A DNA stretch of 64,000 nucleotides from an uncultured bacterium (GTDB lineage: Bacteria; Patescibacteriota; Patescibacteriia; Magasanikbacterales; UBA922), in NCBI GenBank assembly GCA_937861125.1, contig CALMAY010000037.1:196941-260940 (forward strand), read 5' to 3'. This document shows, piece by piece, positions 1,316 through 35,781 of the stretch. The notes beneath the pieces were generated by a model. The model did not search any database and was not told where the DNA came from. It saw only the letters and a list, made by a program, of their open reading frames with translations. The position numbers and the translations under genes are program-made. Each line of letters opens with the position of its first letter. Position 1 is the first letter of the stretch.

Positions 1316-2116
1316 CTAATCCAATAACGGATTATACATCATCAACGCACAATTCTTCGTCACAAATTCTTTAGCAATAATCTCATGTGTTTGTGTGTCG
1401 ATCACTTCACGAACAATCGTGTTGTTTCGTGAATACGCTCCAAATGGTTCGTGAATAATGTGGTGTTCTTTTTCTATTATGTTGTAGGAGTATGGAATAT
1501 CATGCTGCGCGCGCCACTCTCCGATAAGGTGGGTATCAGTGAGTTTCAGATACAGTTGAAATGTTTGGTCTGTATTGTTTTGAATTTTGAGATCAATGTT
1601 TGGATATGAGCAGGTGGCACCACTGCCAAATGGCTGGGTGCGGGAAACATCAGGAAAGACGTCATAGCTGTGTCGCCAGCGTTCGGTGATGGTGAGTGGT
1701 GTGTGCAGTGTCATCCAGTAGATAAGGTTGGAGAGCTGACATAGACCACCACCGACGCCGTAGGTCATAGTACCGCAGTAGAGGATCATCCCATCAGCAA
1801 ATCCGCGCCGTTTGGTCGGTTTGCCAATAGATTTCCAGTATGAAAATGTTTCACCTGGCTTGATGATAAGACCGTCTATTGTGTCGATGGCAAGTGCGAG
1901 GTTTTTGATTTTATTTTCTTGCATTTGTTCGGGCACATTGGCGAGTGGGCGGCGGAGAGGAGTGCTATGTTGGTAGATTGTTGTGGGGAGTTGATCTGTT
2001 GTTTGGTTGGTTGCAAATGGAGTGTAAGCAAAAAACCAAGACAGGTGTGTTTTGGTGGTGTAGTAGAGTTGTCCGAGTGCACGACGAAGAGGGGAACGAT
2101 GGATGGGTTGTTGCAT
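1316..2116 (-). CDS. VanW-family protein
   Basis: GGGLCQLSNLIYW and the surrounding C-terminal region match my memory of the VanW domain signature. Not verified by search. Confidence 0.65.
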   Translation of the reverse strand: MQQPIHRSPLRRALGQLYYTTKTHLSWFFAYTPFATNQTTDQLPTTIYQHSTPLRRPLANVPEQMQENKIKNLALAIDTIDGLIIKPGETFSYWKSIGKPTKRRGFADGMILYCGTMTYGVGGGLCQLSNLIYWMTLHTPLTITERWRHSYDVFPDVSRTQPFGSGATCSYPNIDLKIQNNTDQTFQLYLKLTDTHLIGEWRAQHDIPYSYNIIEKEHHIIHEPFGAYSRNNTIVREVIDTQTHEIIAKEFVTKNCALMMYNPLLD

Positions 2117-2117
2117 A

Positions 2118-2315
2118 TTACTTTTTTGACCGATAATGCAGCCGGAGCGTCTTCAATCGTGCGTCCATTTGATCCGGTGTGATTGTGCCTGTCAATAATT
2201 CTGTCCGCACTAATCGTGCAATGGCGCTGTCAACAATAATTTCTTCAGCTATATCTCTTTTTTGAGATGATGTAGACTCAGGTGTCTGTCGTGGTGTATA
2301 GCGTCGTTCTGTCAT
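2118..2315 (-). CDS. Small hypothetical protein (65 aa)
   Basis: Tightly packed between gatB (stop at 2317) and the VanW-like gene. No recognisable motif. Confidence 0.35.
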   Translation of the reverse strand: MTERRYTPRQTPESTSSQKRDIAEEIIVDSAIARLVRTELLTGTITPDQMDARLKTLRLHYRSKK

Positions 2316-2316
2316 A

Positions 2317-3864
2317 TTATCTCAGCTTCTCCTTCAAAATCTCCTCAATCACCACCGGATCCGCCGATCCTTCGCTTGCTTTCATCGCCATCCCTTTGAG
2401 GAATTGGAGGAGAGGAGTTTTGCCGGCACGGTACTGTGCGACTTGGTCTGGATAGCTAGTGATAACATTGTCTACAATTGATTCGAGAACTGCTGTATCA
2501 CCAACTTGACCATAACCTTTTTCCTCCATGATGTGTGTTGGGTCTGCGTTTTTGCCAGAGGAGAGCATGTCGATGAGGAGTTTCTGGGCGTTGGTTGAGT
2601 TGATTTTTTTGGTGTAAATGAGAGCGATAAACTCAGCAAAGTTTTCTGGTGAAATCGCGAGGGTCTCAATCGTGATATTTGTCTCATTCATGGCACCAAT
2701 CAGTTTGCTGGTGAGCCAGTTGCCTACTGTGCGAGCGACGTCATTGCGACGGAGTGAGCATTCGTCTTCTGTACAACTTTCTCCTTTGGAGAGTTCGTCA
2801 ATCCAGGATGTTGCCTCGCTCATTACTGCTTCGGTAAAATTGGCCCACAGCGCGTCTTCGGTGAGGAAACGTGCGTCGGCATATGAAAGGCCGTATTCGT
2901 CGCGGAAACGGGCTCTGCGCGCCTGTGGGAGCTCAGGAAGAGTGAGGTCTCCTGCCAACATCAGTGGGTGAAATGGAGGAATATCTGGTTCAGGGAAATA
3001 GCGGTAGTCAGCTGCTGTTTCTTTGGCACGCTGGGAGACTGTCTCTCCCGTACTATCGTTATATCCACGAGTTTCTTGGACAATCATTTTACCAGCCTCA
3101 AGTGCTTTGGTTTGGCGTTCTGTCTCAAAGAGAATTGCTTTTTCGACGCTCTTGAATGAGTTGATATTTTTGACTTCCACCTTATTATTTAGTTTGTAAT
3201 CTCCCAGTGGTTTGACGATGCCGTCAACAATTTCAAAACGACCCGTCTCTTGGAGAGAGATGTTTACTTCACAGCGCATGTGGCCTTTTTCCATATCTGC
3301 GTCTGATGCATCGAGTGCGCGTAGTAGTGTTCTGAGTTCCTGACAAAATGTCTTGGCTTCGAGTGCTGTTTTGAAATCAGGGTCAGTAACGATCTCAAGG
3401 AGTGGTGCACCAGAGCGGTTGAAATCAACAAGTGTGCTTTTGTCAGTACCATGTGTGAGTTTGGCGGTGTCTTCCTCGAGGTGGGCACGGGTGATACCAA
3501 TCACGGCAGTGTCGCGGATGTTGTCCTCAAGAGGAAAAAAGAGGGTAAAGTTGCCATGTTCAGCGATTGGTTCATCGTACTGTGATATCTGGTATCCTTT
3601 TGGGAGGTCAGGGTAAAAGTAGTGTTTGCGGTCAAATTTAGAAAGTTCACGAATCGAACAGTTGAGTGCTTTACCTACCAAAACTCCTAGGCGCATCGCC
3701 TCACGGTTTGGGACGGGGAGTGTGCCTGGGTGAGCGAGACAGATTGGGCAGATGTTGGTATTTGGTACTGTCTCATCTGCATCATTTTTGCAACGACAAA
3801 ACATCTTGGAAGCAGTTTTGAGCTCCACGTGGATTTCCATGCCGATGATTGGGGTATAGGACAT
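2317..3864 (-). CDS. gatB: Asp-tRNA(Asn)/Glu-tRNA(Gln) amidotransferase subunit B
   Basis: MSYTPIIGMEIHVELKTASKMFCRC... is the typical GatB N-terminus. Start trimmed to the ATG at 3864; the ORF track begins at a GTG at 3876. Confidence 0.9.
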   Translation of the reverse strand: MSYTPIIGMEIHVELKTASKMFCRCKNDADETVPNTNICPICLAHPGTLPVPNREAMRLGVLVGKALNCSIRELSKFDRKHYFYPDLPKGYQISQYDEPIAEHGNFTLFFPLEDNIRDTAVIGITRAHLEEDTAKLTHGTDKSTLVDFNRSGAPLLEIVTDPDFKTALEAKTFCQELRTLLRALDASDADMEKGHMRCEVNISLQETGRFEIVDGIVKPLGDYKLNNKVEVKNINSFKSVEKAILFETERQTKALEAGKMIVQETRGYNDSTGETVSQRAKETAADYRYFPEPDIPPFHPLMLAGDLTLPELPQARRARFRDEYGLSYADARFLTEDALWANFTEAVMSEATSWIDELSKGESCTEDECSLRRNDVARTVGNWLTSKLIGAMNETNITIETLAISPENFAEFIALIYTKKINSTNAQKLLIDMLSSGKNADPTHIMEEKGYGQVGDTAVLESIVDNVITSYPDQVAQYRAGKTPLLQFLKGMAMKASEGSADPVVIEEILKEKLR

Positions 3865-10084: not shown

Positions 10085-10900
10085 CTATTTTTGATGTGTC
10101 CGACGGAGTTGTTTGTACAAAAATGTGATAACAAAGAGCAAAATTGAGATGCCAACGATAGTTGGGCCGCTCTGGGTGTCGATGGTGTAGGAGAGGTAGA
10201 TACCGCTCCAGACACTGACAACCGCATATCCGATAGCGAGGAGAATGGTTTTTTTGAAGCTGGTTTTGTAGAGGACCGCAGTCATTACTGGGATGATGGC
10301 GAGGGCGCCGATGAGGAGTGCGCCGACAATGCGAAGAGAAAATGAGATAACCCCCGCTGCCAAAAACAAGAGGAGTGCATTGTACATAGTCACATTAAGT
10401 CCACTTGATTTGGCGATATCCTCGTCAAAGGAGATGAGAAAGAATTGTCGGTAAAACCGAGTGAGGAGAAGTGCTGTGATGAGTGCGGTGGTGCCAATAA
10501 CCGCAATATCAGACCAAGTAATCGTCACGATACTACCAAATAAATACTGAAAAATACTCACATACGCCGTGTCAGAGAGAGAAAAGAGAATCATGGCGAG
10601 TGAGAGTGATCCAGCGAGGAGGAGTGCGAGGAGTGATTCTGGATAGACACTTCGTTTGGTGCGTGTGTACTCTATGAGTGCGACGGCACCAAGTGCGCAG
10701 ACAAATGCACTGAGCAGTGGGTGGATACCCGTGAGGAGTCCTAGCGCAATACCAAAGAGCGAGACATGAGAGAGTGTGTCTGAGAGGAGTGAAAGACGGC
10801 GTACAACGAGAAACGAACCGATCCACGGTGCGATAAGTGCTATGATGGTACCACCAATGACAGCACGTTGCATGAATTCAAATGAGAGAAAATCAAACAT
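10085..10900 (-). CDS. znuB: Metal (Zn/Mn) ABC transporter permease, ABC-3 family
   Basis: Polytopic membrane protein in an operon with the ATPase, the SBP and the Fur-family regulator. Confidence 0.75.
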   Translation of the reverse strand: MFDFLSFEFMQRAVIGGTIIALIAPWIGSFLVVRRLSLLSDTLSHVSLFGIALGLLTGIHPLLSAFVCALGAVALIEYTRTKRSVYPESLLALLLAGSLSLAMILFSLSDTAYVSIFQYLFGSIVTITWSDIAVIGTTALITALLLTRFYRQFFLISFDEDIAKSSGLNVTMYNALLLFLAAGVISFSLRIVGALLIGALAIIPVMTAVLYKTSFKKTILLAIGYAVVSVWSGIYLSYTIDTQSGPTIVGISILLFVITFLYKQLRRTHQK

Positions 10901-10905
10901 AGATA

Positions 10906-11643
10906 CTAGTGGTGATGGTGGTCGTGATGCAGCACGTGTACGTGTCCGCCATACATTTTGTTGATAGCATCAGACATGTCTAGGTGACTCGTTCCTGAGA
11001 AGCACATCATCGAGTGGTTGATACACAGCACTGTGTCTACCTCTTTGGCGATTCGATCGATATCGTGTGAGACGAGGAGGATCGTCATGCCTTCATCGTG
11101 GAGTTCTTTGAGGAGTTGAAAAAACTGTTGCTCAGAGGCGATATCCATGCCAGCAGTTGGTTCATCCAGTATAAGAATGTGTGGATTCATCAGGAGTGTG
11201 CGTGAGACGAGTACGCGCTGGCGTTCACCGCCAGAGAGCCCGCTCATGTGTCGGTCGATGAGGTGAGTGCAATTTGTTTTTTCTAGAGCAGCGAGAATAC
11301 GCTCTTTTTTTTCTTTTCTTCGTACATGTTTGGTGAGTCCGCTGGCTACTACATCACTGACTATGGCTGGAAAGACAACATCATTTTGTACAAGACGTTG
11401 CGGGACATATCCAATAGTTGGGTGTGGAATCTGTTCATTTCCAATATGAAATGTGCCTGATGTTTGGGGTAGTAGATTAAGGAGTACTTTGATCAGTGTA
11501 CTTTTTCCACCACCGTTTGGACCAATCACACCGACGTATTCTCCCATATTCAACTCAAAACAGATATCAGAGAGAATTGATATCTCGTTGAGTGTGACAC
11601 AGAGATCACGTACGGTGATGAGTGGTTGCGGTGTTATTTGCAT
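10906..11643 (-). CDS. znuC: Metal ABC transporter ATP-binding protein with a His-rich C-terminal tail
   Basis: GPNGGGKST, LSGGERQR and ILILDEP motifs. C-terminus is GGHVHVLHHDHHHH. Confidence 0.8.
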   Translation of the reverse strand: MQITPQPLITVRDLCVTLNEISILSDICFELNMGEYVGVIGPNGGGKSTLIKVLLNLLPQTSGTFHIGNEQIPHPTIGYVPQRLVQNDVVFPAIVSDVVASGLTKHVRRKEKKERILAALEKTNCTHLIDRHMSGLSGGERQRVLVSRTLLMNPHILILDEPTAGMDIASEQQFFQLLKELHDEGMTILLVSHDIDRIAKEVDTVLCINHSMMCFSGTSHLDMSDAINKMYGGHVHVLHHDHHHH

Positions 11644-12653
11644 GCGAGTGCTATTTTGAGGTTATTGAGGTTTTGTTCCATCAGTGAAATATATGTTGCA
11701 TTTGCTGCTGCTTCCTCTTCATTTCGTCCTTCAATTGGTGTGAGGACGAGTGTTTTTGCGCCTACTTCTGCTGCGAGTGTCTCTGCTAATTTTGGACTGA
11801 CAAGTGATTCAAAAAAGATATATTCCGTCTTGTTTTCTTTGGCTTCTTCTGCGAGCTGAGATAGTTGTTTTGCAGATGGTTCAGCACTTGGTGAGAGTCC
11901 GGCAATTGCGTGAGTAGTAAATCCGTATCGTCCACTGAGATATGCAAACGCATCATGTGAGACGATGATACTGTCTTTTTCACATGTCGATAGTCCTGTT
12001 TTATATGCTTGATCAAGTGATTCGAGCGCAGAGAGAAATACCTGTGTTTGTTGTGCGTATTGTGTCGCATTGTTTGGATCAATTGACATCATTTCGTCAC
12101 GCAGTGCAGTCGCTGCACGCATCATCACAGTTGGGTCTAGCCAGACATGTGGATCTTTTCCTGTCTCATCTTCATGAGTGTGTCCCACTTCGTCTGCATG
12201 AAATTCTTCTGCTGCGTGCTCATCCTCATTATGATGTTCTACTGTCTCTTTGTGTGCTGCGTCATTATGGTGTTCGTGCGCACCACCTTCTTTGAGCGCC
12301 ATACCGTCTGTCAGTTCGAGCACCGTTACTTGTTTTGTTTCTAGATCAGTGTGCAGTTTTTCACCCCATGGATCGAGCCCTGCGCCATTCATAAAAAAGA
12401 CATCAGCAGAGAGGATCTGTTCAATTTGTTTTGGCGTTGGTTCGTAATCGTGTGGTTCTGTGCCCTCTGGTGTGATGACAACCACATTGGCTAGATCACC
12501 CAAAACTGCACGACTCACCTCAGCGATAGGGAAAAAGGTTGCTACGACGGTTGGTTTTTCTGTATTTACTTCTGTTGGTTTTAGAGTACTGTTTGATGCG
12601 CACCCCGCGCCCATCAGGAGTACTGCTGCAACGAAGAGGAAAGAATATTTCAT
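11634..12653 (-). CDS. znuA: Metal ABC transporter substrate-binding lipoprotein (ZnuA/TroA type) with a His/Asp/Glu-rich loop
   Basis: Signal peptide plus lipobox MKYSFLFVAAVLLMGAGC. The loop HEHHNDAAHKETVEHHNEDEHAAEEFHADEVGHTHEDE is typical of ZnuA. Start trimmed to 12653. Confidence 0.8.
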   Translation of the reverse strand: MKYSFLFVAAVLLMGAGCASNSTLKPTEVNTEKPTVVATFFPIAEVSRAVLGDLANVVVITPEGTEPHDYEPTPKQIEQILSADVFFMNGAGLDPWGEKLHTDLETKQVTVLELTDGMALKEGGAHEHHNDAAHKETVEHHNEDEHAAEEFHADEVGHTHEDETGKDPHVWLDPTVMMRAATALRDEMMSIDPNNATQYAQQTQVFLSALESLDQAYKTGLSTCEKDSIIVSHDAFAYLSGRYGFTTHAIAGLSPSAEPSAKQLSQLAEEAKENKTEYIFFESLVSPKLAETLAAEVGAKTLVLTPIEGRNEEEAAANATYISLMEQNLNNLKIALACK

Positions 12654-12670
12654 ATTCGTAATATACATGA

Positions 12671-13084
12671 TTAGTGATTGTGAAGTTTTTTGTCGCATGA
12701 TCGACAGAGCCCTGTCAGAGCGAGTGTGTGGTGAATATGGGCAAAACTTTTGAGAATAATATCGGGGATGGCGCATGACACTTTCTCTGTTTTATTGCAT
12801 GAGTTACAGACGATATGATGTGCATGTGCTTTGTTATGCATGTGTAGTTCATAGAGCTGTTCGCCATCTCGCACTGTGACTGGATGGATGACGTCGAGCT
12901 CCGTGAGGAGGTCAATGGTGCGATAGATGGAGACACGGTCTACCTCAGTGAGGCGTGTGATGATGTCATTGGCAGAAAAAAGTGATTTCTGTTTGATGAT
13001 ATTTCGAATGACTGCATCACGCTGAGGGGTTTGCTTGTATCCATTTTTGGAGAGAGTTTCGTAGATCTGTTTTGTCAATGTCAT
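12671..13084 (-). CDS. zur: Fur-family metalloregulator (Zur-like)
   Basis: HAHHIVCNSCNK ... GLCRSCDKK (Fur-family HxHH and CxxC pairs). It heads the znu operon. Confidence 0.8.
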   Translation of the reverse strand: MTLTKQIYETLSKNGYKQTPQRDAVIRNIIKQKSLFSANDIITRLTEVDRVSIYRTIDLLTELDVIHPVTVRDGEQLYELHMHNKAHAHHIVCNSCNKTEKVSCAIPDIILKSFAHIHHTLALTGLCRSCDKKLHNH

Positions 13085-13107
13085 ACGTGTACAATGTATA
13101 TATGTCT

Positions 13108-13136
13108 AGTATATGCAACTCAGTTGCATTTGTCAA
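13108..13136 (-). promoter_or_regulatory. zur-znu promoter (TTGACA-17-TATACT) with a 7-1-7 palindrome operator in the spacer
   Basis: Minus strand reads ttgaca aatgcaactgagttgca tatact. The perfect palindrome aTGCAACTcAGTTGCAt lies at 13113-13129. Confidence 0.65.
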
Positions 13137-13158
13137 GTACGTTATTCACATATTACTA

Positions 13159-13188
13159 TTGACTATTGCAACTGAGTTGCAGTATAAT
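13159..13188 (+). promoter_or_regulatory. Divergent plus-strand promoter (TTGACT-18-TATAAT) carrying the second copy of the palindrome
   Basis: ttgact attgcaactgagttgcag tataat, with TGCAACTgAGTTGCA at 13167-13181. Confidence 0.5.
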
Positions 13189-13229
13189 AGTTTTGCGCCT
13201 TGCACATAGACGCATGTTCCCTAAACAGC

Positions 13230-13259
13230 AAAAAACCCGACGTAATAGTCGGGTTTTTT
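13230..13259. terminator. Bidirectional terminator (A6-cccgac-gtaata-gtcggg-T6)
   Basis: Stem 13236-13241 / 13248-13253, flanked by an A-run and a T-run. Confidence 0.75.
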
Positions 13260-13264
13260 GTTTA

Positions 13265-13810
13265 CTATGATTTCCGTGTGTGTAGGGCAGTGACGAGCAT
13301 TGTTATATACACGATGACTGCCATGCTTGGAATCGTGATAAAACCATACATTATAAATGGTGGAGTAGAACAAGCGACACCACTTTCTGCTGAACAGAGA
13401 AATGCTGGAATCCAACCTTGCTGTAATCCGATATGGTAACTCGATAAAGCAATGCCACCGAGTATGAATGGGTAGGTAAAGATGGTAATGTCTTTGCGCT
13501 GTGTGAGAAGGGCTGTGCCTGTAATGATCGCAATTGGATACATACAGATCCGTCCATACCAACAGAGTGCACATGGGACGAGATTGAGAATTTCAGAATA
13601 AAACAAACTACCTAAGAGGCTAGTAAATGAAAAAAAGAAGAGTATTTCAATCTTATATTGTGCAATAAAAATCTGTACTGGTTTGATCATTTTTTGAACT
13701 GCACTACTGCGTGTCGCAACTGCGTAACTCAGGAGGAGGAGTATCAGGAGAATCAAGATAATAAGTCCACCAGTAGGAAGGAGCCAGGAGATAAAAGAGA
13801 TAGGATTCAT
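13265..13810 (-). CDS. Disulfide bond formation protein, DsbB/BdbC family
   Basis: PCALCWYGRICMYP matches the BdbC-type PCxLCWYQRIxMYP motif. Four hydrophobic segments. Confidence 0.7.
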   Translation of the reverse strand: MNPISFISWLLPTGGLIILILLILLLLSYAVATRSSAVQKMIKPVQIFIAQYKIEILFFFSFTSLLGSLFYSEILNLVPCALCWYGRICMYPIAIITGTALLTQRKDITIFTYPFILGGIALSSYHIGLQQGWIPAFLCSAESGVACSTPPFIMYGFITIPSMAVIVYITMLVTALHTRKS

Positions 13811-13849
13811 AATATGTATGTATGGTGTATGAGGTCTTTAGTATGGCGT

Positions 13850-15079
13850 TTAGTGGTGGTGATGTCCATGCCCGTGATGATGGTCGTCGGCTCGTTCCGT
13901 TTCTGTTAGTGGTGTATGTGCATAGCTCCATGCTGCGAGTGCTGTGGTAATAGGAACTGCAAGAACGAGTGTGATGCTTCCAACAAATGTGCGAGCAATT
14001 TCTTCCATCACAATCGAATTATTCAGTGTTGTCCACCATGGTTGTGGGTAGACAAAAAAGAGGAGGAGGAGTGGAAACGATGCGCCAGTGTAGGCAAGGA
14101 TGAGTGTGTTGACGAGTGAAGTGATGTGCTCTTTGCCTACTGACGTGGCACGACGATAGAGTTCCACAAAAGAAAAATTTTGGTTGGCACGATGAAGCTC
14201 TTCTACTATCGCTGCTTGAGCTGTCGTAATATCATCCAAAACACCCAGTACACCAAGGAGTATGCCACCAAGCAGAAGTCCTTTAACATCAATATGCATA
14301 TTTGGAACTGCTTGGAGGAAAAAAGCTTCTTCTGTCCCAAGTCCTGTGAGCGTTAGAAACCAGCCAGAGATATATGCAAACACAATCGTTAGTACAATTA
14401 AAAGAATTGTACTGATGATAGCGAGAATGGTGCGTCTGTTTTTACCATGTGCCAATAAGACAGATAATACACCAATACAAATACTACTGATGCCACAAAT
14501 AAGCAGTGGTGGGTATCCAGAAAGGATGGATGGGATAGTAAAGAAAAAGAGGATACCAGCAGTGCTGAGTAGGCCTAGCAATGATGTAAACCCGCGGTAT
14601 CCTGCAAATATGACGGTGAGAATAAAAAAGAGGCAGCCGAGTATGAGTGTGGCATGGAGACGATAGAAGTCATAAAAATAGTATGATGTTGGAGCGTCAG
14701 ATGGTGTGGTTTTGCCTATGATAATAGTGTCTCCTACGTGAAGAGACATACTGTCAGCTTCTTTTTGTGTTTGTGTGAGTGTAATTGGCGCGTGCGTATT
14801 GGCATCATCACCATTTTTGATACGAGCAATAAATTTGGTAGTTATATTTGTATCATTTGTGCCATCACCATCACCATCATAGTCATACGTTTTTTCTTCT
14901 GTTGAGAGTATGTCGGTGATGTGTCCAATCATCAACGAATCATTGTTTTCGACATAGGGTGTGTTGGGATTGTCGAGTGATCCAGGTGGACTAAACGGTG
15001 GGCGTAGGTATGACCAAACAATACTCACTATAATGAGAGTAATGCTGATATATATAAGATGTTTTTGGGAGAGATGCAT
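13850..15079 (-). CDS. YibE/F-like polytopic membrane protein with a C-terminal His-rich tail
   Basis: Large N-terminal extracytoplasmic region followed by many TM segments. C-terminus is ADDHHHGHGHHHH. The family call is from memory. Confidence 0.55.
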   Translation of the reverse strand: MHLSQKHLIYISITLIIVSIVWSYLRPPFSPPGSLDNPNTPYVENNDSLMIGHITDILSTEEKTYDYDGDGDGTNDTNITTKFIARIKNGDDANTHAPITLTQTQKEADSMSLHVGDTIIIGKTTPSDAPTSYYFYDFYRLHATLILGCLFFILTVIFAGYRGFTSLLGLLSTAGILFFFTIPSILSGYPPLLICGISSICIGVLSVLLAHGKNRRTILAIISTILLIVLTIVFAYISGWFLTLTGLGTEEAFFLQAVPNMHIDVKGLLLGGILLGVLGVLDDITTAQAAIVEELHRANQNFSFVELYRRATSVGKEHITSLVNTLILAYTGASFPLLLLFFVYPQPWWTTLNNSIVMEEIARTFVGSITLVLAVPITTALAAWSYAHTPLTETERADDHHHGHGHHHH

Positions 15080-35748: not shown

Positions 35749-35781
35749 AGAACATAGAGCAAAGAGTAGGGAACAAAATAT

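Follow-up and report, generated by a model that had tools for sequence, protein, structure and literature searches.

Two palindromic boxes in back-to-back promoters beside a Fur-family gene of Patescibacteria: putative operators of a zinc-uptake operon and of a candidate small RNA

A Fur-family operator that overlaps the promoters of metal-uptake genes is a well-known kind of element, and to our knowledge gene regulation in the ultrasmall Patescibacteria (CPR) is almost unexplored. The locus described here lies within a stretch of 64,000 nucleotides that was analysed at its full length (the window), and it raises the question of which protein reads two palindromes located in divergent promoters next to a Fur-family gene, to which metal this protein would respond, and what the promoter facing away from that gene might produce. 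Along the minus strand the order is L25, YibE/F, DsbB-like protein, a bidirectional terminator, the intergenic region with the boxes, the Fur-family gene, ZnuA, the ABC ATPase, the ABC-3 permease and L1. An earlier note on this DNA had named the neighbouring genes zur-znuA-znuC-znuB, and a Fur-family regulator, ZnuA, an ABC ATPase and an ABC-3 permease do adjoin the boxes. The features are:

10085-10900, minus strand: ZnuB-like ABC-3 permease.
10906-11643, minus strand: ZnuC-like ABC ATPase with a C-terminal HHDHHHH tail, ending in HVHVLHHDHHHH.
11634-12653, minus strand: ZnuA/AdcA-like zinc-binding lipoprotein with a long His-rich loop (PF01297; start codon according to the L018 gene call).
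12671-13084, minus strand: Fur-family regulator of 137 aa (PF01475, E = 1.5e-15).
13136-13108, minus strand: predicted promoter P_zur, with the -35 element TTGACA (13136-13131), a 17-nt spacer and the -10 element TATACT (13113-13108).
13114-13128: box 1, TGCAACTcAGTTGCA, in the 17-nt spacer of the zur promoter, at a position also kept in lineages L022, L006 and L002.
13159-13188, plus strand: predicted divergent promoter P_div, with the -35 element TTGACT (13159-13164), an 18-nt spacer and the -10 element TATAAT (13183-13188).
13167-13181: box 2, TGCAACTgAGTTGCA, in the 18-nt spacer of the divergent promoter.
13195-13262, plus strand: candidate Zur-repressed small RNA of ~66 nt, with a 5' stem-loop (13195-13213), an invariant AUGUUCCCUAAAC predicted to be single-stranded, and a terminator.
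13229-13260: bidirectional intrinsic terminator, with arms 13229-13241 and 13248-13260 that are 100% complementary (CAAAAAACCCGAC, 6 nt, GTCGGGTTTTTTG).

Positions 13100-13190 read tagTATATGCAACTCAGTTGCATTTGTCAAg ... aTTGACTATTGCAACTGAGTTGCAGTATAATa and hold perfect copies of the palindrome TGCAACTNAGTTGCA at 13114-13128 and 13167-13181. The earlier note had described these as two 7-1-7 palindromes, the first in the 17-bp spacer of a minus-strand promoter and the second in the 18-bp spacer of a plus-strand promoter. Both copies are indeed perfect and lie 53 bp apart (start-to-start), box 1 widens to 8-1-8 (ATGCAACTcAGTTGCAT, 13113-13129), and the promoter scan places them in the same two spacers. 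In this sigma-70-type scan P_zur and P_div each match the consensus at 11/12 positions, and they have the top two consensus scores in the surrounding 3 kb, in opposite orientations, with transcription predicted to start near 13101 and near 13195, respectively. The box fills spacer positions 3-17 of both predicted promoters alike, and the two promoter-box cassettes form a 23-nt inverted repeat (13114-13136 / 13159-13181) whose arms are 91% complementary and 22 nt apart. When each box is read along its own promoter, the two have the same sequence in the window, L022, L006 and L002, and in L002 they do so although two inner positions have changed (TGCAACCCAGTTGCA). The -35 and -10 elements of P_zur are invariant across the window, L006 and L002, and the predicted zur leader (13085-13101) has ~17 nt, without a recognisable Shine-Dalgarno sequence.

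The scan at 1-2 mismatches that had been suggested for the box was run over the 64-kb window, and the palindrome pattern with up to 2 mismatches has 4 matches there against 0.38 expected, a number reached by none of 100 shuffles. Besides the two boxes, these are two imperfect matches inside coding sequences, one in enolase (56427) and the other in a peptide-chain release-factor gene (27957). When 1 mismatch was allowed, the window-wide scan for weaker boxes gave no further intergenic site, and the intergenic sites at 2 mismatches lack palindromic quality. The core box thus has two sites in the window, both at one locus, and no regulon past this locus can be defined there.

The regulator has few close homologues, with five clusters found, and a scan of one genome per species added ten loci at ~30% protein identity, nearly all labelled Saccharibacteria; three more lineages (L022-L024), reached via the YibE/F neighbour, carry the same boxes. 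Every one of the 16 loci collected initially has the core TGCAA-N5-TTGCA (~0.13 sites expected in their 137 kb, 27 observed), as do all 19 independent related loci with a regulator homologue; the latter comprise seven lineages from the window's clade along with ten MAGs of Saccharibacteria. The core lies just 5' of the regulator gene or of a box-bearing neighbour, and each of the ten Saccharibacteria loci has exactly one core, 18-54 bp upstream of the Fur-family gene. The core was absent from four control loci without such a regulator arrangement. The distant loci found in a DsbB homologue search have neither a zur gene nor a box, and the one locus that the regulator alignment retrieved from metagenomes (L017), partial and of a more distant homologue, lacks an upstream box.

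The palindromes could instead be sites of an unlinked transcription factor, a dispersed repeat, as the earlier note had considered, or chance palindromes. We regard this explanation as highly improbable, considering that the observed palindrome count exceeds that of every shuffle of the window, that the core is confined to a single locus in the window and accompanies the Fur-family gene across lineages, down to ~30% protein identity and whatever else is nearby, and that it is missing from the control loci lacking a Fur-family gene. The boxes combine dyad symmetry above chance, overlap with the core promoters, co-inheritance with the regulator and zinc-acquisition neighbours, as would be looked for in an operator. 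Because the core stands upstream of homologous regulator genes and its neighbours are zinc importers, we consider the boxes very likely to be operators of the adjacent Fur-family protein, in an autoregulated zinc-uptake operon, as the earlier note had proposed on the basis of the window. This reading of predicted binding is now supported by phylogenetic footprinting: across lineages the core would represent the footprint of an autoregulated zinc regulon, which supports, and does not prove, binding.

The comparison across lineages also modifies the architecture of the box. Among 16 distinct sites, T1, G2, C3, A4 and A5 and T11, T12, G13, C14 and A15 are invariant and positions 6-9 are variable; G10 is kept in 14/16, in contrast to position 6, its mirror. 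Within the window's clade, conservation extends to C6, T7, A9 and G10, giving the 7-1-7 appearance. The 7-1-7 description given previously therefore stands for this clade, whereas the family-wide core, as judged from the aligned sites, is 6-5-6. The Streptomyces coelicolor Nur box, tTGCaa-N5-ttGCAA, as established in a DNase I footprinting study (PMC2691836), has this same core. Its outer hexamers and 5-bp gap recur in the sites described here: those of the Saccharibacteria (TTGCAA-N5-TTGCAA) match exactly, and those of the window read aTGCAA-N5-TTGCAt and cTGCAA-N5-TTGCAa.

The half-sites of characterised Zur boxes are of the TCGTAAT, TGAAAAT and GTTATA types, from which the half-site TGCAAC found here differs. 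The earlier note had held the half-site TGCAACT to be unlike known boxes, and this remains so for these Zur half-sites but not for the core, which equals the Nur box. In other respects the boxes resemble the characterised Zur boxes of Bacillus subtilis, Streptomyces/Mycobacterium and Enterobacteria, being dyad sites that overlap the core promoter of zinc-uptake genes beside a Fur-family regulator. The system departs from the characterised ones in having zur as the first gene of the uptake operon, a mirrored second cassette, and a protein that falls below the Zur equivalog cut-off. We found no description of a Zur box in Patescibacteria, nor of a Fur-family box with TGCAAC, in the searchable literature, which appears not to cover this particular box, how far it is conserved across Patescibacteria, or that its core is that of Nur.

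The identity with the Nur core leads to the question of which metal is sensed. The regulator is a divergent member of the Fur family that reaches none of the NCBIfam equivalog cut-offs for Fur, Zur or PerR (36.6 bits with the Zur model NF008646, against a cut-off of 167), and its designation as Zur, which we infer, comes from genomic context. Two CxxC motifs and His81/87/89/90/116/118/119 are invariant within the clade. Like Nur, the presumed binder is a Fur-family protein with a YR motif in the recognition helix. In contrast to Nur, the nickel-site residues His70, His72 and His126 align to Pro68, Thr70 and Thr120, and the M-site His33 to Leu35 (alignment to 3eyy); whereas the targets of Nur are sodF and nik, here zinc importers adjoin the box and no sod or nik genes are present at any locus. 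The regulator is not a Nur orthologue. In the Nur study the nickel site was held responsible for 6-5-6 recognition (PMC2691836), and if the proteins studied here bind the core, reading a 6-5-6 site without a nickel site would be an exception to the idea that the site dictates recognition. A Nur-type core shared by proteins devoid of this site bears on how members of the Fur family choose their DNA targets.

The genes flanking the core are in all cases zinc importers, either an AdcA/ZnuA-like ABC system or ZIP permeases, together with a His-rich secreted protein. The ZnuA-like protein of the window has AdcA, YcdH and Synechocystis ZnuA as its best solved relatives (6e-57 to 4e-36), against ~5e-28 or weaker for Mn/Fe binders. 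Contigs of the window's clade show the same synteny, with a ZIP permease instead of ZnuABC in two lineages, directly 3' of the regulator gene (L002 4402-5139, L006 1547-2287), which is a non-orthologous replacement at a conserved operon position. In Saccharibacteria the sites are placed between the regulator gene and a divergent gene for a ZIP permease, ZnuA or an uncharacterised membrane protein. In L001, L005 and L023 a TTGACA-box-TAAGAT/TAATAT cassette precedes the gene of the secreted His-rich protein, which is likely a zinc-starvation protein.

On these grounds zinc is quite likely the sensed metal. A different signal, with nickel, manganese, iron or peroxide acting on the same adjacent Fur-family protein, would fit the identity of the core with the Nur box, the best sub-threshold matches of the regulator, which are to Fur and PerR rather than Zur in NCBIfam and the PDB (the best one in NCBIfam being a Fur model), and the ability of ZIP and cluster-9 ABC systems to carry other metals. 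Nevertheless, it appears very unlikely: the Nur residues His70, His72 and His33 are replaced by Pro68, Thr70 and Leu35, the binding protein is nearest to the zinc-specific AdcA, YcdH and ZnuA, with E-values lower by ~30 orders of magnitude, and carries a His-rich loop as is usual for zinc binders, and at none of the loci is the core linked to sod, nik, peroxidase or iron-uptake genes.

The second promoter has no protein gene downstream; a segment of ~66 nt runs from it into the terminator, which is common to dsbB (minus strand) and to the candidate RNA (plus strand). Block 13200-13228 of this segment is invariant at 25/29 positions among four lineages whose regulators are only ~60% identical, compared with 7/23 positions in the zur 5' leader and 10/22 in the inter-promoter DNA, and the block is single-copy. 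A P_div-like TTGACA-17/18-TATACT/TATAAT promoter with the box in its spacer is present in 7/7 lineages, and promoter, box, body and terminator are kept together in these seven, three of which have an RRM gene opposite instead of zur. The predicted fold, a 5' hairpin of 5-6 bp followed by the single-stranded AUGUUCCCUAAAC and the terminator, is alike in all homologues tested, and the terminator stem of L002 has been rebuilt from other sequence (CTCCCCGA/TCGGGGAG). Paired cells make up 88% of the 5' stem, versus 24-56% with slid partners; its covariation is not significant, with one compensatory pair that is equalled in 159 of 500 shuffles. Searching 12600-13900 against Rfam at a permissive threshold gave sub-threshold chance matches only, and over the whole window Rfam reported one tRNA only.

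A peptide on the plus strand (MFPKQQ...) was considered and rejected. A 1-nt deletion in L002 shifts the frame of the only plus-strand ORF, and because this frameshift destroys it we take the segment to be non-coding. The minus strand opposite the 5' hairpin holds a mini-ORF, overlapping it at 13192-13212 of the window (ATG CGT CTA TGT GCA AGG CGC ..., MRLCARR...). Its first seven codons, MRLC(A/T)(R/K)R, are conserved among the lineages with mostly synonymous changes, and the whole mini-ORF is 7-35 codons long, depending on the lineage; it could explain the same substitutions that are seen in the 5' stem.

This mini-ORF enters into another explanation of the second box, in which box 2 is only an auxiliary operator: cooperative dimers on the same face of the DNA would repress zur, the plus-strand promoter would be unproductive, and the conserved downstream block would serve otherwise, as the mini-ORF MRLCxRR or as the site of another protein. 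The spacing of the boxes, 53 bp start-to-start in the window, L022, L006 and L002 and 43 bp in L001, L023 and L024, differs by 10 bp, about one helical turn, and so stays in helical phase, as such a function would have it. Likewise, in L001, L023 and L024 the second box is found just upstream of the -35 of the RRM gene and not in the spacer, as if the box pair itself were needed, the 5'-stem substitutions are mostly synonymous in the mini-ORF, and the covariation of the candidate RNA is not significant. Weighing against it, the -35 and -10 elements of P_div are kept in 7/7 lineages with the box at the same spacer position, which an auxiliary site would not need. The mini-ORF, for its part, lies downstream of the dsbB terminator without a promoter of its own, ranges in size as given above, has its putative RBS 2 nt from the ATG, and leaves the most conserved part of the block, AUGUUCCCUAAACAG, outside its coding part. 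We therefore judge a purely auxiliary function of box 2 to be unlikely.

As regards the preferred reading, in which box 2 controls a productive promoter, we give about even chances to the plus-strand segment being a Zur-controlled small RNA. A Zur-repressed sRNA was first reported in 2026, namely ZinS of Staphylococcus aureus, which has 274 nt and also encodes the peptide ZinP (PMC13586535). The candidate shares with ZinS, as predicted features, a Zur box at a stand-alone promoter of its own and a bidirectional Rho-independent terminator common with the convergent gene; in contrast to ZinS it is a prediction from sequence, has ~66 nt and no conserved ORF on its own strand, and belongs to an unrelated lineage. 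If the short RNA is real, Zur-controlled riboregulation would extend from S. aureus to a very distant lineage. Among Fur-repressed sRNAs, RyhB, PrrF and FsrA are short RNAs that have an unstructured conserved region and an intrinsic terminator, and RNAs of the FsrA type use C-rich single-stranded stretches. Here, similarly, a candidate short RNA would be under a metal-sensing Fur-family repressor, the stretch being UUCCCU, whereas the metal and the lineage are different and there is no sequence similarity (no Rfam match).

Targets of the candidate RNA were looked for within the window. Among 57 translation-initiation regions the best predicted duplex relies on long internal loops, a 9-nt match (TAGGGAACA) near 35765 falls in a 3' region that precedes a terminator, and no convincing target was found within these 64 kb. 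Possible, and put forward tentatively, is the broader proposal of a trans-acting Zur-repressed RNA of ~66 nt that uses AUGUUCCCUAAAC as its seed in a zinc-sparing response, combined with a Nur-type core that is read without a nickel site. If true, no riboregulator would have been proposed for CPR bacteria before it, and it would be only the second type of Zur-controlled sRNA, unrelated to ZinS.

In Zur systems generally, repression takes place when zinc is bound (PMC13586535). Under the full model, with two Zur operators in back-to-back promoters that control the uptake operon and a short RNA, and which we consider probable as a whole, a zinc-loaded Zur dimer would occupy each box when zinc is sufficient and keep RNA polymerase off both promoters, whereas upon zinc scarcity Zur would leave the DNA and both P_zur and P_div would fire. 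Transcription from P_zur would yield zur-znuA-znuC-znuB, providing negative autoregulation as well as zinc import, and transcription from P_div would yield the ~66-nt conserved non-coding RNA, ending at the terminator that is common with the convergent dsbB. The boxes being whole helical turns apart, the two Zur dimers may interact. Conserved from the window's clade to the Saccharibacteria, the box offers a testable regulon marker for zinc homeostasis in host-dependent bacteria, and the Saccharibacteria include cultivable, genetically tractable members.

Several observations were made on the surrounding genes. The YibE/F membrane protein (13850-15079, minus strand) has a His-rich end (DDHHHGHGHHHH), and the order L25 - YibE/F - DsbB - zur - zinc importer - L1 is kept in 7/7 related lineages. 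The His-rich tails of YibE/F and ZnuC and the conserved gene order suggest that YibE/F is possibly metal-related too; no box was found upstream of its gene. The more distant named relatives of YibE/F are from Magasanikbacteria and Gracilibacteria, in agreement with an assignment of the window to Patescibacteria.

The secreted His-rich protein (L001 5208-5873, L005 225-881, L023 7528-8232) has ~220 aa, no Pfam match, and His-rich stretches at its N-terminus (HNHNHGEHTHDH) and C-terminus (HHH...HGGHPEH). The small RRM-type RNA-binding protein is encoded between the candidate RNA and zur (L001 4791-5060, L023 7053-7418, L024 4079-4357), and its being a partner of the candidate RNA is speculation. 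Homologues of these two proteins of the relatives were not found in the window with tblastn. The divergent membrane protein of L011 (4357-5253) and L012 (5027-5953) has ~300 aa and an HGITPDEH motif, without a Pfam match, and may be an uncharacterised metal transporter. In L007-L010 and L013 (for example, L007 5968-6003) a third half-site TGCAAC is situated between an extended -10 element (TGcTATACT) and the ATG. Finally, the distantly related contig L019 carries a DNA gyrase B gene with an intein (1479-3851).
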